24,000 nt of DNA from Gammaproteobacteria bacterium. Its GTDB lineage: Bacteria > Pseudomonadota > Gammaproteobacteria > Arenicellales > JAJDZL01. This document shows positions 5,300-24,000 of the stretch, piece by piece (position 1 is the first letter of the stretch; every line of letters starts with the position of its first letter). Position numbers and translations under genes: made by a program. The notes beneath the pieces are model-generated. The model saw only the letters and a program-made list of their open reading frames with translations. It was not told where the DNA came from and did not search any database. The stretch spans positions 23,847 to 47,846 of the forward strand of contig JAJDZL010000158.1 of the NCBI GenBank assembly GCA_022824665.1, read 5' to 3'.

Positions 5300-5376
5300 G
5301 GCTATGTAGCTCAGCTGGTTAGAGCACGGCACTCATAATGCCGGGGTCGGTGGTTCGAGTCCACCCATAGCCACCA
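5300..5376 (+). tRNA. tRNA-Met, anticodon CAT (elongator type), encoded CCA end
   Basis: The 77-nt sequence GGCTATG-TA-GCTC-AGCTGGTTA-GAGC-A-CGGCA-CTCATAA-TGCCG-GGGTC-GGTGG-TTCGAGT-CCACC-CATAGCC-ACCA folds by hand into a cloverleaf with all four stems paired. It is very similar to E. coli elongator tRNA-Met. A lysidine-modified tRNA-Ile2 cannot be strictly excluded from sequence alone. Confidence 0.9.
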
Positions 5377-15250: not shown

Positions 15251-16618
15251 TTACTGCACGAACTGTTCGTGCAGGTTTTTGTACTCGTCCCGAAACTGCT
15301 TGTCCTGTTGTTCGCGTTCACGCACTTTTTTGAGCGCGTACAAGACAGTCGCATGATTCTTGCCGCCAAATGCTTTGCCGATTTCCGGCAGACTCTTGCT
15401 GGTAAACTCCCGACAAAGACTCATTGCCACCTGGCGTGCCAAAACCAGGTCAGCTCTTCTTTTTGCTGACAGGATATCCTTGAGCCGCACGTCGTAATAG
15501 CGTGCAACGGCTGCCTGAATATCATCGATGGTGATGGTTCGGTTGCTGAACTCAAGCAAGTCCTCCAACTGATTCCTGACAAACGCAATGGTGATTTCCT
15601 TGCCCATGAATCGATGGCTGGCTGCCAGTTTGTTGAGTGCACCTTCCAGTTCGCGTACACTGGTTGTGATATTTTCGGCCAGGAACCTCAGTACTTCCGG
15701 TTTGATATGAATATCACGCAGCTTGGCCTTGATTTCCAAAATGGCAATACGCGTTTCGAGCTCCGGCGGACTAATCCGCACGGTTAGCCCCTGACTGAGC
15801 CGCGACTTGATCCGGTCTTCCACCTGCACGAGTTCCCGGGAAAATTTGTCGCTGGTAATAATCACCTGTTTGCCACCTTCCAGCAGAAGATTGAATGTCT
15901 GCAGGAATTCCGCCTGTGAGGACTCCTTGCCAGAGAACAGGTGAATGTCGTCGATAAGGAGCGCATCCAGTTCACGATATGCGTTCTTCATTCGCTCGGC
16001 AGCTTCATTGTTACGATTCAAAATAGCGTTAATGATGTGCTGAACAAAATTCTGTGCGTTGACATAGCCGACCTTGGCGTTCGGGTATCGATCCTGCAGC
16101 GCGTGACCGACCGCCTGCATGAGGTGTGTCTTGCCAATTCCGACTGTACCATAAAGAAACAGCGGATTGTATTCACGCCGGCCAGGGTCTTTGCTGGCCG
16201 CCTCCGCGGCACAGCGGGCGAGCCTGTTTGAATCGCCGACGATGTGCTGGTCAAACGTGAAAATTGGCGACAGCGGGCTGAATCCGAACTTCAGCGTGCC
16301 GCCCTTGTTTTTTGAAGAATTGCTGGCCGGCAGCGCCCTGCTTTTACCGTTCCCGCTGCGCGCGAGAGGTGCGCCTGTTGATTCCAGTTCAACTTTAACG
16401 GATATCCGGTCGCCATAGTATGCACTGGCCAATTCGGTAATGCGCTCCAGCCACCTCGATTCAACCGCGTTTCGAACATATGGGTTCGGTGCCCTGAGCA
16501 CCAGCGCACCATTGACCGCATCCGCACTCAATGTGCGAAGTGAGGCGTGGAGGTCTTTTTCGCTAACCTCCTGCCCCAGCTGGACAAGGACAGTTTCCCA
16601 TAAACTCAAAGGTATCAT
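15251..16618 (-). CDS. dnaA: Chromosomal replication initiator protein DnaA
   Basis: Walker A GTVGIGKTHLMQAVG, Walker B LLIDDIHLF, and the C-terminal DnaA-box-binding helix-turn-helix (ARQVAMSLCREFTSKSLPEIGKAFGGKNHATVLYALKKV); 455 aa. Confidence 0.97.
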   Translation of the reverse strand: MIPLSLWETVLVQLGQEVSEKDLHASLRTLSADAVNGALVLRAPNPYVRNAVESRWLERITELASAYYGDRISVKVELESTGAPLARSGNGKSRALPASNSSKNKGGTLKFGFSPLSPIFTFDQHIVGDSNRLARCAAEAASKDPGRREYNPLFLYGTVGIGKTHLMQAVGHALQDRYPNAKVGYVNAQNFVQHIINAILNRNNEAAERMKNAYRELDALLIDDIHLFSGKESSQAEFLQTFNLLLEGGKQVIITSDKFSRELVQVEDRIKSRLSQGLTVRISPPELETRIAILEIKAKLRDIHIKPEVLRFLAENITTSVRELEGALNKLAASHRFMGKEITIAFVRNQLEDLLEFSNRTITIDDIQAAVARYYDVRLKDILSAKRRADLVLARQVAMSLCREFTSKSLPEIGKAFGGKNHATVLYALKKVREREQQDKQFRDEYKNLHEQFVQ

Positions 16619-17662: not shown

Positions 17663-19359
17663 TGGATTTTCGCCGCGCGCTGCTGTCGATTTCGCTTGGC
17701 CTGGTTTTGCTGCTGATCTGGCAGGCATGGCTCGACTTTGACAGGGGACAATCGGAATCCGTACCAGTCGGCGAGCGCGCTCAACTTGACTCAGAGCTAC
17801 CTGCAACCCCGGTTGCACAGCCGCAAACACAGCCCTCAGCAGTACCTGAAGCACCCGATGCACCAGCCGCGCCCGCTACCGCGGGCATTTTGCCGCAGGT
17901 TCAGCAGGAAACTGGCACCCTGATTACGGTTGAGACGGATTTACTGAAAGTCAATCTCGATACAGTCGGCGGACAACTGCGCGATGCTCGCTTGCTCAAA
18001 TATCCGGTGGAGGTTGAAATGCCGGATGTACCGTTCAGGCTGCTGAAAGATCAGCCTCCGGATTTGCTGATTGCGCAGTCGGGACTGGTCGGCAATGATT
18101 TCGAGTACCCCAATCACAAAACCGAGTTCAGTGCGGAAGAAAACGCCTATACGCTAGCGACGGATGAGCAGACTTTAGAGGTACCGCTTTACTGGCGCGC
18201 TGCAGACGGTGTCGAGTACACCAAGATATTTACCTTTTACCGAGACAGCTACCTCATTGATATCGAATACCGGGTGGACAATCGCAGCGGTCGAACCTGG
18301 CAAGGCTATCAGTATGGCCAGTTTCTGGCGACTGAGCAGGACTCTGAGCGCGAGGGATTCTTGTTCCTGCAGGCCTTGCCCAGCTACCAGGGCGCGGCAA
18401 TCTATACGCCTGAGGACAAGTATGACAAGATTGACTTCAAGGAAATTCGCAACGACAAGCCGGTGTTTGAGACTGAATCGGGCTGGGTGGCCATGCTGCA
18501 GCACTATTTTGTCACGGCCTGGCTGCCGGAAGAAAGCGCCCCTTACCGTCTTTACACCAGAACGCTCGCTGACACCGCGGCGCAGACTCGCTATCAGGTC
18601 GGCTATGTCACGCTGACACCCACCACGGTCGCCAATGAATCGGTCGGCTCCCTTAACAGTCGGATCTATGTCGGTCCCAAGGAACAGGATCGGATCAAGG
18701 ACCCTGCCGAGGGCCTGATTCTTACCGTCGATTACGGCTGGCTGACACCCGTCTCTTCACCGCTTTTCTGGATCCTGAGAAAAATTAACGATTTCGTTCA
18801 GAACTGGGGCTGGTCAATCATCATTCTCACCCTGCTCGTGAAGATCGTTTTCTATCCGCTGTCGGCAGCCAGTTACAAGTCGATGGGGAAAATGAAAAAA
18901 CTGCAGCCGCGCTTAAAGACGCTTAAAGAGCGCTATGGCGATGACAAGCAGAAGCTCAACCAGGAAATGATGCAGATTTACAAGAAAGAGAAGATCAATC
19001 CGTTGGGTGGCTGTTTGCCAATTCTGATTCAAATACCTGTATTTATTGCACTTTATTGGGTTTTGCTGGAAAGTGTCGAGCTTCGCCAGGCGCCGTTTAT
19101 CTTTTGGCTCACTGATCTTTCCCGGTCTGATCCATATTTCGTGCTGCCCGTTTTGATGGGCGCATCGATGTTTGCACAACAGTTTTTGAATCCGACCCCG
19201 CTGGATTCGCTGCAAAAGAACATCATGATGAGCCTGCCCATTGTTTTTACGATATTCTTTCTGTGGTTCCCGTCCGGGCTGGTGCTTTACTGGCTCGTCA
19301 ATAACATTCTTTCAATTGCCCAGCAGTGGTACATCACACGCAAACTGCTGACCGAGTAG
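17662..19359 (+). CDS. yidC: Membrane protein insertase YidC
   Basis: N-terminal [23 protein letters not shown], a large periplasmic P1 domain, and a C-terminal 5-TM core (GWSIIILTLLVKIVFYPLS...MKKLQPRLKTLKERYGDDKQKLNQEMMQIYKKEKINPLGGCLPILIQIPVFIALY); 565 aa. The start shares one base with the yidD stop. Confidence 0.95.
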   Translation: MDFRRALLSISLGLVLLLIWQAWLDFDRGQSESVPVGERAQLDSELPATPVAQPQTQPSAVPEAPDAPAAPATAGILPQVQQETGTLITVETDLLKVNLDTVGGQLRDARLLKYPVEVEMPDVPFRLLKDQPPDLLIAQSGLVGNDFEYPNHKTEFSAEENAYTLATDEQTLEVPLYWRAADGVEYTKIFTFYRDSYLIDIEYRVDNRSGRTWQGYQYGQFLATEQDSEREGFLFLQALPSYQGAAIYTPEDKYDKIDFKEIRNDKPVFETESGWVAMLQHYFVTAWLPEESAPYRLYTRTLADTAAQTRYQVGYVTLTPTTVANESVGSLNSRIYVGPKEQDRIKDPAEGLILTVDYGWLTPVSSPLFWILRKINDFVQNWGWSIIILTLLVKIVFYPLSAASYKSMGKMKKLQPRLKTLKERYGDDKQKLNQEMMQIYKKEKINPLGGCLPILIQIPVFIALYWVLLESVELRQAPFIFWLTDLSRSDPYFVLPVLMGASMFAQQFLNPTPLDSLQKNIMMSLPIVFTIFFLWFPSGLVLYWLVNNILSIAQQWYITRKLLTE

Positions 19360-20714
19360 ATGCGCGCGGACCCGATACGATCGCTGCCATCTCGACCCCT
19401 GCCGGGGTGGGCGGTATTGGCGTTGTGCGTCTGTCAGGCACCCAGTGCCGTCCGATTGCCAGCGCGCTGGCCGGTGCAGTCCCGCGGCCGCGCAAGGCGC
19501 AGTATCAAACGTTCAAAGATGCTGATGGCAGGCCGATAGACCAGGGCATTGCGCTCTACTTTCCCGCGCCACGCTCCTATACTGGCGAGGATGTTCTGGA
19601 GTTGCAGTGTCACGGTGGGCCAGTCGTGCTCAACATGCTGCTGGGTCGGGTGCTCGAGCTCGGCGCGCGCACCGCTCAGCCTGGCGAGTTCACCGAACGC
19701 GCCTTTTTGAACGACAAACTGGACCTGGCCCAGGCCGAAGCAGTTGCTGATCTGATTATGAGCTCTACTGAGGCTGCTGCGAGAAGCGCAATGCGTTCCT
19801 TACTCGGCGATTTTTCCGCCCGCGTTCACGAGATTCGCCAATCAATCCTCGAGCTTAGAATGTACGTGGAAGCGGCAATCGACTTTCCCGAAGAGGAGAT
19901 TGACTTTCTTGACGACCAGAGTATTGTTCAGCAGCTCGATCAGATTCGCGATGAGTTGACTGACTTTCTTGCCAGCGCGGCGCGCGGGCGAGTGTTCCGT
20001 GAGGGTCTGGATGTGGCCATTGCCGGGTTGCCGAATGCGGGCAAGTCCAGTCTGCTCAACTGCCTGGCGGGCATGGAGCGTTCGATTGTTACGCCACAGG
20101 CCGGAACCACTCGGGATACCGTTGATTTGATGATTGATCTCAATGGCCTGGCGGTTCGTCTGACTGATACAGCGGGGCTTCGCGCGAGCACCGATCCAGT
20201 CGAACGGGAGGGCATCGATAGAGCCTGGCTGGCGGTTCGTGAGGCGTCCCTTGTGCTATACCTGGCTGACATGGGTCAGGGTCTGACCGACGCGGACCTC
20301 GAGAACCTCTCACACCTTGAAAACTGCAATGTGCTGCTGGTCTGGAACAAGATTGACCTTGCGCAGGACAGCTTTGCACCACCGGCACTGCCCAAGGGTG
20401 TGAATGAACAGCTGTCAATTTCGGCCAAATACACGCTTGGAATTGATTTAATTGGCAGCTACATTCAACAGTTTGCAGGTTTTACAGTCAGTGAGGAGAG
20501 CCTCTTTCTGGCCCGTCACCGGCATCTTGAAGCCATGCAAAATGCGCTTGAATTTATTAACCAGGCATACACTGCGCTATACGAGCAGCGTTTGGGGGAT
20601 CTCGGCGCCGAAGACTTGCGGGACGCGATGAATGAGCTGGGCAAGCTGGTCGGTGAGATTTCACCCGATGATCTGCTCGGCGAGATATTTGCCAACTTTT
20701 GTATCGGTAAATAG
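19326..20714 (+). CDS. mnmE: tRNA modification GTPase MnmE (TrmE)
   Basis: DTIAAISTPAGVGGIGVVRLSG, G1 GLPNAGKSSLLN, G3 DTAGLR, G4 NKIDL and the C-terminal FCIGK. The only in-frame start I find is the GTG at 19326, overlapping yidC by 34 nt. Confidence 0.93.
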   Translation: MVHHTQTADRVDARGPDTIAAISTPAGVGGIGVVRLSGTQCRPIASALAGAVPRPRKAQYQTFKDADGRPIDQGIALYFPAPRSYTGEDVLELQCHGGPVVLNMLLGRVLELGARTAQPGEFTERAFLNDKLDLAQAEAVADLIMSSTEAAARSAMRSLLGDFSARVHEIRQSILELRMYVEAAIDFPEEEIDFLDDQSIVQQLDQIRDELTDFLASAARGRVFREGLDVAIAGLPNAGKSSLLNCLAGMERSIVTPQAGTTRDTVDLMIDLNGLAVRLTDTAGLRASTDPVEREGIDRAWLAVREASLVLYLADMGQGLTDADLENLSHLENCNVLLVWNKIDLAQDSFAPPALPKGVNEQLSISAKYTLGIDLIGSYIQQFAGFTVSEESLFLARHRHLEAMQNALEFINQAYTALYEQRLGDLGAEDLRDAMNELGKLVGEISPDDLLGEIFANFCIGK

Positions 20715-20781: not shown

Positions 20782-21717
20782 GTGATGCAAAACAATCAAT
20801 CTGCCAGGGTGCTGGCCCAACTGGGCATTGTGCTGGCATTTGTCGCAGGCATAGCCCTGTGGCAGCACGAGTATCTGATCAATCTGTACATCGCCAATCA
20901 GCTTACCAAAGTCGGCTGGGTGGTGAACGGTGCAATACTGGCTCTGTTTTTACTGGGTCTGACGCAGATGGTGCGGCTTTTGTTACACTATCGCCTTGAA
21001 GAAAATGCGCTGAATGCCTTTTCCAAGGCCGTGAAAAGTGGCGCGACAGACAATATGGACAAGCTGTTGCCGGCAAATTCGATTATCGGCCAGCGTTACC
21101 ATACAGTTGCGGGTTTTTTCAGCTCGCGGACAGAAATCAATCACAATGCACTGGCCGCGACCTTGCTGGCCCGCGAGACGAGCAAGACGAGTTTCATCAA
21201 GTTCGTCAACAACATCCTCATTCTGGCCGGGGTATTTGGCACCATTGTTTCCCTGACCGTCGCGCTGATAGGCGCATCCACCGCAATCTCTGCGACCGAC
21301 AGTTTACGCGGCATTGATGTTGTAATCCACGGCATGTCAACTGCGCTTTCGACCACCATGACGGCAATTTTGGCTTATTTCATATTTGGGTATTTTTACC
21401 TCAAACTCATGGACACACAGTCCTACATCCTGGGGCGGGTTGAGCACGAAACTGCAACTGAACTGATCCCGCGCTACCAGGTGGCGACCCGTTCACCCGA
21501 GCAGGCACTAAGCGAGCTGTTGACTGGAACGGTTGAAACCATCAACAAGTTCAATGAATTCATCAACAAGATGCAGACCATTGGTGAATCACAAAACCAG
21601 GTGCTGGAGAACTTCGAGCAGCTGACCAACGAGAACATGCGGGTCCTGAGCGACATCAGGAGCATATTGCGCGCCGGCTTCAGACTACGGGACGAATCCG
21701 AAAGCGAGCAGGGCTAG
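20782..21717 (+). CDS. MotA/TolQ/ExbB-family proton-channel-like membrane protein with a coiled-coil cytoplasmic tail
   Basis: 311 aa with four hydrophobic segments (about residues 8-27, 44-68, 142-166, 177-209). The last two, ILILAGVFGTIVSLTVALIGA and GMSTALSTTMTAILAYFIFGYFYL, fit the G-x-x-GT ... AL-x-TT pattern of the MotA_ExbB core. Residues 235-300 are heptad-like (LSELLTGTVETINKFNEFINKMQTIGESQNQVLENFEQLTNENMRVL). The start is GTG 20782 or ATG 20785. Confidence 0.7.
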   Translation: MMQNNQSARVLAQLGIVLAFVAGIALWQHEYLINLYIANQLTKVGWVVNGAILALFLLGLTQMVRLLLHYRLEENALNAFSKAVKSGATDNMDKLLPANSIIGQRYHTVAGFFSSRTEINHNALAATLLARETSKTSFIKFVNNILILAGVFGTIVSLTVALIGASTAISATDSLRGIDVVIHGMSTALSTTMTAILAYFIFGYFYLKLMDTQSYILGRVEHETATELIPRYQVATRSPEQALSELLTGTVETINKFNEFINKMQTIGESQNQVLENFEQLTNENMRVLSDIRSILRAGFRLRDESESEQG

Positions 21718-21735
21718 GACCGGGGACCGGCGGAC

Positions 21736-24000
21736 ATGGCAGCGGACTCTGGCGGTTTCGTTGACCTGCGCGTTCACCGCGCCACTGAAGGCAACCACTC
21801 CGACGACAGCATATGGCCATCATTTACCGACATCATGATGGTTGTTGTGATGATCTTTCTGATGGCTGCGGTGATCTTTATGTTGCGCAACCTGCAACTC
21901 GACGAAGATATCGCAAAAGCCACCACGGCTGAAATCGAAGCGCAGGAGGAAACTCAGTCACTTCGCGAGAGAACGGCATATCTTACTGATATTATTAATA
22001 AAACAAAAGCCGAGCTGACGCTTACTGAAAACCAGAGAAGTGAGCTTGAAGCATTGTCCGAGGTGCGTGGCACGCGTATCACGGAGCTTGAAGTCGAGAC
22101 TGCCCGGCTGTACCAGACCCAGCAGCAGCTTGCTGCCGAGGTCGCCGGTCTGAACCAGCAGATCGAAGACATTCGACAGCAGCGAAACGCACTGACTCAA
22201 CGTGTCAGTTCGATGAATCAGACCATTGCCGAGCTTAATTCTCTGATCGATGACCGGGCGCTCGAGTTTGAAGTTCTGCAAACCGAATTTACCCGCAAGC
22301 AGCAGCAATTGAGTCTGCTTGAACAGACGCTCACGCAGCGCACCCAAGAGCTGCAGGACTTGACACTGGCGCGCGCGCAATTGCAGGGCGTCATTGATCA
22401 GCTTCAGGAAGTTAAGTCTGAACAGGCACTTGTAATTGAGCAGCAGGTTGAGACACAGGCATTGTTGCGGGAGGAGATATCGAAGCGCGCGAGCGAAATT
22501 CAGGAATTCGAACGCCAGCTGGCAGCCCGTGATGATGCCATTGAGCAGCTTCAGGGAGTTAAGTCTGAACAGGCACTTGCAATTGAACAGCAGGTCGAGA
22601 CACAGGCATTGTTGCGCGAGGAGATATCGAAGCGTACGAGCGAAATTCAGGAATTCGAACGCCAGCTGGCAGCCCGTGATGATGCGTTCCGGGAGCTTAG
22701 CGAGGCAAGCCAACTCCTGCAGTTGGATGTTGACACCCTGTCAGCCAGTCAGCTTGACAATGCCAGGACGATTGCAATCCAGCGGCAAAGCCTTGAATCA
22801 TTAACCGCGCGCTATGCCACCCAACAGGCGGAACTTGAACGTGTTCGAACCGAATCAGCCGCGCGGGACATTGAGTTTGCCAGAACCCGGGACCAGCTGA
22901 CAGCCGCGCTGGCAGATCTGGCTGAAACAAAACAGGTCAGTGAAACGACAAGTGCGCGTCAGCAAGGGGAGCTTTTTGCAATTAGACAGTTGCTCACTCA
23001 AAGTGATCAAACCGTGGAAGTTCAAAAGCAAGAGCTGGCATCCCTGCGTGCGCAGTATGCGGAGCGCCTGGCGGAGCTCAACCGGGTTGAAGCCAACTAC
23101 ATTCAGCGCGAGCGCGAATTGGTGCGCTTGCAGGAACATCTGACAACAGCCATTGAGACGGCCGAAGCACTGAAGGCCCGACTACAGGAGCGGGATACCG
23201 AAATTGGCACACTAAACATCCGGATTGCTGCGCTCGGTGATGAAGTTGACACCTTGAATCGAGCCGATGTAGTCTCAAATGATCAAATAAATCAAATGGT
23301 TGATGAAATTCTGAGTTATCAGAACCAGATTGCCGGGCAACTTGGCCAAATTGCTGAGCTTGAGCAAAACCTGCGTCAGACTGAAGTCGAAAAGGATGAC
23401 ATTGAACGCGAGCTTGAATTCAGCCGGCGGTTGCAGGCCGACCGCCAGGAACAGTTGCAAACCATGCAGGCACTCATGCAGCAGCTGAGCGACGATCTCA
23501 AGGTACGCGATGAGCGACTGGAGTCACTTGCAGCCGAAAATCAGAGTTTGAAGGAGTCTGGTGTGCGCGGTGAGAAACAGATTGTCGAGCTTCGTCAGGC
23601 CTATCAGGAGCGACTGGCCGAATTGGCCAGCATGGAAAGCGCGCTCGCGGCAAGCAGCGGACAGCTGGCTGAACTGCAAAGCGAAATCGTTGATCTTGAA
23701 GAAGAACGTCAACTGATGCTGAGACCCGCGCGAAGTCCGGCTAATCGCTATGTTGTTGAAGTCTACTATGACCGGAGCACTGCAGGGGAACCGATTTATC
23801 AGTACCGCGTGCCAGGCCAGAGCCTGGCCTATACCGTCAGCCGGGAAGCGCTGGATGATATTCTTGAGCAACTGAAAAAGGAGCGTTCTGAAGGCCTGTA
23901 TACCCGGGTCATCTTTCCAAACGAAGACCGATTGACGTTCGGTGATGCGTGGGCGTTCACACAGCATATCCAGTCCAATTACGATTACTATAGCCAGTAA
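21736..24000 (+). CDS. ExbD/TolR(MotB)-like membrane protein carrying a ~600-residue coiled coil between the Asp-bearing TM helix and a small C-terminal domain
   Basis: 754 aa, 18 bp after the previous gene. Residues 27-45 (WPSFTDIMMVVVMIFLMAA) align with E. coli ExbD TPFIDVMLVLLIIFMVAA, including the essential Asp (D32 here, gac 21829-21831). Residues ~55-660 are Q/E/L/A/R-rich heptad sequence. Residues ~670-745 (YVVEVYYDRS...YRVPGQSLAYTVSREALDDILEQLKK...LYTRVIFPNEDRLTFGDAWAFTQHI) follow the strand/helix pattern of the ExbD/TolR periplasmic domain. I found no OmpA-type N-x-x-L-S-x-x-R-A motif. Confidence 0.65.
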   Translation: MAADSGGFVDLRVHRATEGNHSDDSIWPSFTDIMMVVVMIFLMAAVIFMLRNLQLDEDIAKATTAEIEAQEETQSLRERTAYLTDIINKTKAELTLTENQRSELEALSEVRGTRITELEVETARLYQTQQQLAAEVAGLNQQIEDIRQQRNALTQRVSSMNQTIAELNSLIDDRALEFEVLQTEFTRKQQQLSLLEQTLTQRTQELQDLTLARAQLQGVIDQLQEVKSEQALVIEQQVETQALLREEISKRASEIQEFERQLAARDDAIEQLQGVKSEQALAIEQQVETQALLREEISKRTSEIQEFERQLAARDDAFRELSEASQLLQLDVDTLSASQLDNARTIAIQRQSLESLTARYATQQAELERVRTESAARDIEFARTRDQLTAALADLAETKQVSETTSARQQGELFAIRQLLTQSDQTVEVQKQELASLRAQYAERLAELNRVEANYIQRERELVRLQEHLTTAIETAEALKARLQERDTEIGTLNIRIAALGDEVDTLNRADVVSNDQINQMVDEILSYQNQIAGQLGQIAELEQNLRQTEVEKDDIERELEFSRRLQADRQEQLQTMQALMQQLSDDLKVRDERLESLAAENQSLKESGVRGEKQIVELRQAYQERLAELASMESALAASSGQLAELQSEIVDLEEERQLMLRPARSPANRYVVEVYYDRSTAGEPIYQYRVPGQSLAYTVSREALDDILEQLKKERSEGLYTRVIFPNEDRLTFGDAWAFTQHIQSNYDYYSQ
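22399..22692 (+). repeat. Tandem direct duplication, 2 x 147 bp (49 codons), in frame inside the coiled-coil gene
   Basis: Copy 1 at 22399-22545 and copy 2 at 22546-22692. By my manual alignment there are about 7 substitutions over the first ~140 nt. Protein copies: QLQEVKSEQALVIEQQVETQALLREEISKRASEIQEFERQLAARDDA versus QLQGVKSEQALAIEQQVETQALLREEISKRTSEIQEFERQLAARDDA. Confidence 0.95.

Follow-up and report, generated by a model that had tools for sequence, protein, structure and literature searches.

The window analysed here, a stretch of 24,000 nucleotides, belongs to a metagenome-assembled genome of Arenicellales (Gammaproteobacteria) and covers an origin-proximal gene cluster of the chromosome. 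Its genes follow the order gyrB, dnaN, dnaA (minus strand), then rnpA, yidC, mnmE (plus strand), and finally two plus-strand genes, called A and B in this work, with which the window ends. The original prediction, made from the sequence alone, described A and B as two same-strand genes located 18 bp apart right after mnmE and took them for the two parts of an ion-driven envelope machine; their reading frames, coordinates and strand were borne out (Table 1). The pair is a real, conserved and uncharacterised family of marine sulfur- and iron-oxidising bacteria. We consider it fairly probable that A and B make up a complete inner-membrane motor of their own, powered by ions (probably protons) and belonging to the "5:2" class of MotAB, ExbBD and ZorAB, in which a rod is fused to the Asp-bearing subunit B.

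Gene A can be read from a GTG (Table 1) or from the ATG one codon downstream, at position 20785, which gives the 310-amino acid (aa) form present in the databases and is likely to be the real start. The B product consists of a predicted cytoplasmic N-terminal motif, an Asp-bearing transmembrane (TM) helix, a coiled-coil rod and a C-terminal α/β domain. A near-identical 63.7-kb contig shows what lies past position 24000: mnmG, rsmG, parA, parB and a gene similar to BamC come after B, and there is no partner gene among them. The A protein encoded by this contig is 100% identical to that of the window, and two aligned C-terminal residues of its B protein (L001, 10952-13216) differ (VVEV/VVEI and SREA/SREE), which explains why window B has no exact match in the database.

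Table 1. Features of the A-B locus, in positions of the window.
Feature	Position	Strand	Description
mnmE	19326-20714	+	directly upstream of gene A
Gene A	20782-21717	+	311 aa from GTG; membrane protein of the MotA/ExbB/TolQ/ZorA fold, predicted pentameric channel subunit
A TM1 and TM2	20809-20985	+	aa 10-27 and 44-68; model helices H6-27 and H43-86; topology assigned by homology to MotA/ZorA
A TM3 and TM4, channel core	21202-21399	+	aa 141-206; motifs GVFGTIVSL (T154) and HGMSTALSTTMTAI (S190, T191, T192, T194)
A cytoplasmic helical tail	21400-21714	+	aa 207-311, ~105 aa; model helices H176-236 and H239-299
A-B intergenic spacer	21718-21735		18 bp
Gene B	21736-24000	+	754 aa and stop, at the very edge of the window; predicted dimeric axle subunit
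B N-terminal motif G-F-V-D-L-R	21754-21771	+	aa 7-12; predicted cytoplasmic
B transmembrane helix WPSFTDIMMVVVMIFLMAAVIFML	21814-21885	+	aa 27-50; Asp32 codon 21829-21831; conserved R51 and N52 next
B rod	21892-23718	+	aa 53-661, ~610 aa; predicted coiled coil rich in E, L, Q, A and R
In-frame tandem duplication in the rod	22392-22685	+	147 bp (49 aa, seven heptads), two copies, 94% identity (TRF)
B C-terminal domain	23719-23997	+	aa 662-754, ~95 aa; RPAR junction, then β1-β2-β3-α1-β4-α2-β5

Pairing, neighbourhoods and descent of the family

In a collection of 5.8 billion proteins, over 2200 homologues of A were detected, and at least 566 A-family loci are found among the GTDB species representatives. 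The named carriers are Arenicellales, Candidatus Thiodiazotropha, Sedimenticolaceae, tubeworm endosymbionts, SUP05-clade Thioglobus, Acidiferrobacteraceae, Chromatiales and one member of Mariprofundaceae (Zetaproteobacteria). The length of A is nearly constant in the family (296-346 aa, mostly 300-319). A homology search with full-length B returned only nine matches, swamped by coiled-coil candidates; B orthologues were drawn from the loci around A homologues and from a full hidden Markov model (HMM) scan. B directly follows A in all 77 loci with a complete B, so the two are co-conserved as a pair. The distance between them ranges from -4 to +55 bp, with the exception of 253 bp in one locus (L083), which is consistent with an operon.

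Arenicellales share the mnmE/A-B/mnmG-rsmG-parA-parB order with several further lineages of Gammaproteobacteria. In Thiodiazotropha the pair has a glycerate-kinase gene on one side and an Slp lipoprotein gene on the other, elsewhere it follows a patatin gene or precedes an EamA gene, and in Mariprofundaceae it is located between an SDF transporter gene and HIT/DciA genes. Altogether, at least five different and unrelated housekeeping contexts were found, and no conserved third gene is common to them. Two unannotated open reading frames (ORFs) downstream of B were compared as candidates for such a gene and proved to be unrelated. The original prediction had pointed out that known output partners are missing from the window, and this holds beyond it: TonB, TolA, TolB and Pal genes are absent within 8-10 kb of A-B in every context examined, no flagellar, gliding, type IX secretion system (T9SS), defence or ZorC-G genes are linked to the pair in these contexts, and the fetched A-B loci contain neither tolR nor exbD.

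In three loci (L032, 10217-14096; L033, 10132-14113; L037) the usual order is broken by a minus-strand operon located between B and mnmG. It codes for a MoxR AAA ATPase, an unannotated protein and a TgpA-type transglutaminase.

Identity of A to the window protein tracks that of mnmE and mnmG over 35 loci (Spearman 0.92 and 0.86, respectively), and A is conserved as strongly as mnmE. No relatives of the pair were found on IMG/VR viral contigs or PLSDB plasmids, and its reading as a mobile or defence element was rejected on these grounds. Taken together, the neighbourhoods, the vertical descent and the lack of mobile relatives mark A-B as a vertically inherited housekeeping module; a location in defence islands, which the original prediction had proposed to check, was not found.

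In the databases, the proteins of the pair are called "hypothetical" or "MotA/TolQ/ExbB family", and public labels of B relatives (P0135, P0137/P0279) include "chromosome segregation ATPase", "septal ring factor EnvC" and "predicted nucleic acid-binding Zn-ribbon protein". The labels of B relatives are misannotations driven by the coiled coil, and the present analysis corrects two of them, "chromosome segregation ATPase" and "EnvC".

Subunit A and the transmembrane helix of B

Pfam MotA_ExbB (PF01618) matches A over aa 128-213 (TM3-TM4) with 21.2 bits (E 2.6e-4), below the gathering threshold of 22.9 bits; a few members of the A family (P0059, P0062, P0063) carry a precomputed PF01618 match. 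The same TM3-TM4 region is matched by the PADLOC ZorA models at E of about 5e-4. ZorA models match 11 out of 15 A-family members and are the only ones to match A in the defence and NCBIfam libraries, where NCBIfam ZorA_2 scores 9.1 bits and the NCBIfam MotA, TolQ and ExbB models give no match.

Since the Pfam score is sub-threshold, the family assignment of A is based on the predicted fold. The AlphaFold2 model, built on an alignment of 52 homologues, has a mean pLDDT of 85.8. When it was compared with the PDB by Foldseek, every chain among the best 50 was ExbB, TolQ, ZorA, MotA or PomA, with a probability of 0.90-1.00 in 49 cases and 0.72 in one; the best E value was only 6.8e-3, and TM-scores were 0.4-0.63. 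ExbB and TolQ are the top-ranked matches, and 8UCS, 8BRD and 8GQY are also found among the matches. The alignment to ZorA (8qyd_A) spans 309 columns, covering the resolved ZorA core and the base of its tail, versus about 222 columns for ExbB. Four transmembrane helices are present in the model, as in MotA and ZorA, with TM3 and TM4 extended into long cytoplasmic helices. Judging by this model, A has the MotA/ExbB/TolQ/ZorA fold, in agreement with the original prediction of a MotA/TolQ/ExbB-type protein.

In A, G150, G153, T154, S190, T191 and T192 are invariant in the 52 aligned homologues, T194 is conserved in at least 90% of them, and the whole H183...S190-T191-T192...T194 set is invariant or nearly so. 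The conserved Thr and Ser residues of the two inner helices would face the Asp of the axle. Conserved positions are also found in the short loop between TM1 and TM2, predicted to be periplasmic (W27, Q28, Y36, N39, Q40 and T42), and the tail ends with an invariant L296-x-x-G299-F300-R301-L302 motif (21667-21687).

In B the W27-P28-S29-F30-T31-D32 segment is invariant, and Asp32 is present in 77 out of 77 orthologues from genome loci as well as in 106 out of 106 full-length cluster representatives. Thus the motifs quoted for A and B in the original prediction are invariant or nearly invariant across homologues. The single Asp in an N-terminal helix is common to ExbD/TolR, MotB and ZorB, so this feature does not discriminate between them. 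The profile searches do. The N-terminal profile of B finds ZorB chains in the PDB (8vvn_B, E 1.7e-6; 8vvi_A, 5e-5; 8qyd_F, 8e-3), ExbD and TolR chains appearing at E 0.3-1; 8VVN and 8VVI are Zorya structures (PMC11890865). PADLOC ZorB matches all of the 18 diverse B orthologues searched (best E 3.8e-10; window B, 2.8e-8), as do NCBIfam ZorB1 (15.9 bits for B) and PRK09040 (best E 3.5e-8), and PRK09039 matches 15 of them. Pfam ExbD (PF02472) reaches 16.3-16.8 bits (E 0.007-0.011) in seven of the 18, over the helix region only and under its threshold of 25.4 bits, and single orthologues are matched by NCBIfam tolR (E 0.041) and MotB_plug (E 0.076). The N-terminal segment of B is clearly homologous to the axle helix of the 5:2 motors and is ZorB/MotB-like rather than ExbD-like.

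This revises the earlier reading in part. The single invariant Asp and the homology to the axle helix stand, but the likeness is to ZorB and MotB (E 1e-8 to 1e-10) and not to ExbD (0.007); of the Pfam families put forward, both PF01618 and PF02472 remain below threshold, and profiles of the ZorB/MotB type do match B. Likewise, the nearest sequence relatives of the two subunits turned out to be ZorA and ZorB and not ExbB and ExbD.

The GFxDLR motif that precedes the helix has invariant F8, L11 and R12, with D10 kept in at least 90% of the 18 orthologues; it is conserved in the alignment of 77 sequences as well and is missing from a few distant members. Together, the LRxGFRL tail of A and the GFxDLR N-terminus of B suggest a regulated or partner-binding cytoplasmic face. 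The two motifs, both predicted to be cytoplasmic, resemble each other. In the distant member L084 A retains GF.L and B has no F.DLR.

The rod and the C-terminal domain of B

The window B has no Pro between aa 29 and 663, and profile searches with its rod match only coiled-coil-type noise families. Orthologous rods have between ~100 and ~1115 aa, with both ends of B conserved, and the whole protein ranges from 319 aa in Thiodiazotropha to 1261 aa in an Arenicellales genome. In the 106 full-length representatives the median rod is 200 aa long, which corresponds to ~30 nm as a straight coiled coil (5-95% range, 151-483 aa), and the rod is proline-free in 103 of them. The rod of the window, with its ~610 aa, would be ~90 nm long. 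Comparison with the family median of ~200 aa places it within a lineage-specific expansion, so the "enormous" coiled coil of the original prediction is a property of the window and of Arenicellales and not of the family.

The giant rod is the product of this Arenicellales expansion, which proceeds through heptad-preserving tandem duplications. One of them is found in the window (Table 1). Repeat arrays were counted in the window B and in the B genes of L005, L006, L008, L016, L018, L019, L020, L030 and L042: eight out of ten have a period that is a multiple of 7 aa (14, 42, 49, 49, 77, 77, 77 and 154), and the other two have a period of 81 aa. That the periods are mostly multiples of seven gives direct support for a heptad-constrained coiled coil. 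The expansion is recent and ongoing. Arenicellales rods differ by several hundred residues even though the corresponding A proteins are 56-78% identical to that of the window.

The C-terminal domain, modelled by AlphaFold2 from a 10-sequence alignment with pLDDT >90, is characterised by the conserved motifs LY.k.i.P, EAW.FT and a terminal YDYY. Its HMM found 362 clusters (at 50% identity) among 1.84 billion representatives, 329 of them at E <=1e-10; in all 362 the domain is located at the very C-terminus of the protein and never in another architecture. A word-index homology search with the domain alone returned nothing. Pfam gave no match to the domain in the window B or its orthologues, apart from ExbD reaching into it in one of the 18 (E 0.046). 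Even with the limit set at E 10, the OmpA-like domain (PF00691) matched neither the window B, nor the C-terminal domain alone, nor any of four orthologues, and no Pfam match to GldM, PorM or vWA was found in B. Foldseek did not return a significant match in the PDB, and no ExbD or TolR chain is present in its top 50.

Two identities were considered for the domain. The order of its elements resembles the periplasmic domains of TolR and ExbD, and in hhalign α1-β-α2 falls on the corresponding elements of ExbD/TolR, yet the alignments to ExbD and to a four-sequence ExbD/TolR alignment are not significant (E 0.085-0.45). Given that Pfam and the PDB profile search are non-significant too, an ExbD/TolR-like origin was left as a suspicion. 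An RNase H-like nuclease was rejected, the Foldseek matches having E of 0.02 or worse and a probability of <=0.72, with no conserved acidic residues.

Possible mechanism and its alternatives

In the arrangement that we infer from the related motors, five copies of A would form a ring in the membrane, with the Thr/Ser-rich TM3 and TM4 lining the ion path. Two copies of B would insert their N-terminal helices into this ring, so that each Asp32 faces the Thr/Ser ring, and protonation and deprotonation of the Asp would drive the rotation of A relative to B. Because B is homologous to ZorB and MotB, its N-terminus is expected to be cytoplasmic, and the rod and the end domain periplasmic. This periplasmic part would serve as the transmission element, a parallel two-stranded coiled-coil rod carrying at its tip a pair of small α/β domains that may dock on a peptidoglycan or outer-membrane target. 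Either B is held in place while A turns together with its conserved cytoplasmic tail, as happens in MotAB and ZorAB, or B may be the moving shaft. The periplasm of Gram-negative bacteria is about 30 nm wide. From the similar length of the modal rod, the two end domains of a B pair may be expected to extend as far as the peptidoglycan or the outer membrane. Most plausibly, A-B would be a vertically inherited housekeeping envelope system of chemolithoautotrophic Gamma- and Zetaproteobacteria that exerts force between the inner membrane and the outer envelope layers, or senses it there.

By the predicted fold of A and the sequence of the axle helix of B the pair belongs to the 5:2 superfamily, and it falls outside every named system with which it was compared (Zorya, MotAB, ExbBD/TolQR, GldLM and TPH-vWA). 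Like MotAB and PomAB, it has a four-helix A and a B in which a cytoplasmic N-terminal segment precedes a W...D transmembrane helix; unlike them, B has no OmpA/MotB peptidoglycan-binding domain, its plug match is limited to one orthologue out of 18, and there are no flagellar genes nearby. Presumably, many non-motile symbionts and bacteria of the SUP05 type carry members of the family. PRK09039 ("peptidoglycan-binding protein") and the MotB-like PRK09040 match the N-terminal segment and transmembrane helix of B, and full-length window B can be aligned to PRK09039.1-1 over aa 19-175, a segment that extends from the helix to the first part of the rod. However, the scores are ~20 bits against cut-offs of 194-388, and both families, themselves uncharacterised in function, are named for a peptidoglycan-binding end that is absent from B. 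The two-copy central subunit with one N-terminal helix and a long dimeric periplasmic extension as an output shaft would be shared with GldLM and PorLM. In contrast to these systems, B contains no GldM or PorM domains, no T9SS or gliding genes are located nearby, and no search gave a sequence match. The GldM extension is built of globular domains and not of a coiled coil, and the charge pair of GldLM consists of an Arg in GldM and a Glu in GldL instead of an Asp on the axle.

A conceptual precedent for the fusion of the Asp helix to a force-transmitting part is provided by the predicted TPH-vWA proteins paired with TolQ-like genes (Mol Biol Evol 2025, PMC12204202). There, too, a TolQ-like gene lacks a separate TolR/ExbD, and an Asp "transpore helix" is fused to the presumed force-transducing periplasmic protein; the output domain is a vWA domain, preceded by a linker that is disordered or rich in proline, and heterologous gene pairs are frequent (PMC12204202). 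A-B differs in having a single B gene, a coiled-coil rod, an unrelated α/β domain of ~95 aa and a ZorA/MotA-like four-helix A. A full-text search of a library of papers brought up surveys of motor diversity (PMC12505986, PMC9389320, PMC12204202) and no description of the A-B family. The pair thus appears to be undescribed, as was originally proposed, while the principle of a transmission element fused to the Asp subunit has been published in predicted form.

Of the established systems, ZorAB (8QYD, 8VVN and 8VVI) is the nearest in sequence to both subunits. A resembles ZorA in its four helices and in the helical C-terminal extension, which in A is cytoplasmic and closes with an invariant motif, and in full length A aligns to the ZorA core and tail base. 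One could therefore take A-B for a Zorya-like envelope-damage sensor or defence module, in which the periplasmic part of B senses and the tail of A signals to an effector encoded elsewhere. We find this rather unlikely. The tail of ZorA is about 500 aa long, whereas that of A has ~105 aa arranged in two helices. The C-termini of ZorA bundle into an elongated tail that is needed for defence (PMC11890865), and a tail of ~100 aa falls short of it. No ZorC, ZorD, ZorE, ZorF or ZorG-like gene is adjacent to A-B in any context, B is devoid of an OmpA-type peptidoglycan-binding domain and has in its place a long coiled coil with an end domain that is unclassified, and the ZorA_2 and ZorB1 scores are far under the NCBIfam ZorA/ZorB cut-offs (100 and 400 bits). 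The housekeeping neighbourhoods, the descent together with mnmE and mnmG and the absence from the plasmids and viral contigs searched also speak against a defence function. The earlier description of A-B as the reverse of Zorya is right about the long coiled coil being on B, but A keeps its conserved helical tail with LRxGFRL. In structure, on the other hand, A is best matched by ExbB and TolQ. Like the proposed A-B motor, the Ton and Tol systems have an Asp helix inside a Thr-lined ring and a long periplasm-crossing element with a small α/β domain at its end, and domain II of TolA is α-helical in Proteobacteria (PMC12204202). The pair might then be an accessory motor of this type, an ExbBD/TolQR paralogue that energises a separate TonB/TolA-like transducer, with the rod representing an elaborated periplasmic region of ExbD/TolR; the weak Pfam ExbD matches to the B helix and the TolR/ExbD-like order of elements in the C-terminal domain would agree with that. 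Such a motor is nevertheless unlikely, as the ExbD/TolR scores stay below threshold and fall far short of those of the ZorB/MotB type, the C-terminal similarity is not significant by hhalign and is missed by the fold search, no TonB, TolA, TolB or Pal is linked in any context, and A has four transmembrane helices instead of the three of ExbB and TolQ. Moreover, the Ton/Tol rod is a third protein attached at the ring periphery via its SHLS/His helix, whereas the rod of A-B is fused to the central Asp subunit.

Two further explanations were considered. In one, A-B is a degenerate stator without motor activity, a passive tether that anchors the long coiled coil for envelope spacing or scaffolding. 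Rods of highly variable length, quickly changed by duplication, are what could be expected of a spacer or scaffold, and no output partner has been identified. Still, this appears quite improbable: Asp32 of B as well as T154 and the S/T cluster at 190-194 of A are invariant over large distances, and such invariance of ion-path residues is hard to explain without an ion-coupled function; A is, besides, as conserved as mnmE. In the other, the topology is inverted, and the rod and end domain of B act in the cytoplasm near the chromosome origin, in membrane tethering or segregation. The location between mnmE and mnmG-rsmG-parAB, conserved across several gammaproteobacterial orders, the ambiguous charge bias around the B helix, the weak Foldseek matches of the end domain to RNase H-like nucleic-acid enzymes and the "chromosome segregation ATPase" labels all point in this direction. 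We regard it as highly improbable, though, since the homologues ZorB and MotB have an N-in, C-out topology fixed by the complex (PMC11890865), and in several carriers, Thiodiazotropha and Mariprofundaceae among them, the pair has no origin genes next to it. In addition, the RNase H-like matches are insignificant and come without conserved acidic catalytic residues, the database names are coiled-coil artefacts, and the window shows no excess of sites resembling the DnaA box (3 found versus 3.5 expected for TTATCCACA with up to one mismatch).

Several observations weigh against the ion-driven motor with a periplasmic rod, which we nevertheless prefer. A stays under Pfam's own MotA_ExbB threshold, and a search of the PDB sequences with a profile of the A family brings up no chain of ExbB, MotA or ZorA. 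Both the 5:2 stoichiometry and the position of Asp32 within the A ring are predictions from homology, and the charge distribution around the B helix is ambiguous with respect to topology. No signature of peptidoglycan binding, of TonB/TolA or of ExbD can be recognised in the C-terminal domain, so the docking target named above is conjectural. Partner genes could be encoded elsewhere in the genome. Finally, the rods of Arenicellales measure 465-1115 aa (70-170 nm), far beyond any periplasm, and their lengths are not quantised, so a simple strut between the inner and outer membranes is not the whole story in that lineage.

More tentatively, we speculate that A-B may represent a third wiring of the 5:2 motor. 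It would be neither a rotor-pushing stator, like MotAB and ZorAB, nor a puller acting through a peripheral adaptor, like ExbBD-TonB and TolQR-TolA; the Asp axle itself would be a long two-stranded coiled coil. The turning axle would twist or wind the rod and thereby pull or turn an outer-envelope target via the new end domain, with rod length tuned by duplications that preserve the heptads, and this housekeeping system might replace or supplement Tol-Pal in marine sulfur- and iron-oxidisers.

The 5:2 ion motors drive flagella, nutrient import, envelope integrity, gliding and secretion, and phage defence, and each newly understood family has revealed another route from ion flow to work. A-B adds to them a compact two-gene system with a rod built into the putative axle, an unfamiliar candidate docking domain and rods whose length differs at least six-fold between relatives. 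It would make testable how torque or tension travels along a coiled coil, and whether function depends on rod length. The family is abundant in ecologically important and little-studied bacteria: Arenicellales, SUP05-type bacteria, symbionts of lucinid clams and tubeworms, and Zetaproteobacteria. Being conserved as strongly as core housekeeping genes, the pair is probably important for the envelopes of its carriers.

Several minor features of the window were also recorded. ORFs of up to 251 aa overlap B in other frames or antisense (among others 21958-22713, minus strand; 22436-22804, plus strand; 23524-23967, minus strand). They look like by-products of the repetitive codon composition of the coiled coil (AT skew of +0.17 to +0.18 at 22-24 kb) and not like genes. 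A promoter and terminator scan gave counts equal to the shuffle expectation. The minimum of the cumulative GC skew lies near 17-18 kb, and dnaA occupies positions 15251-16618 of the minus strand. The sole Rfam match in the window is a tRNA gene at 5300-5373 on the plus strand (RF00005, 72 bits).

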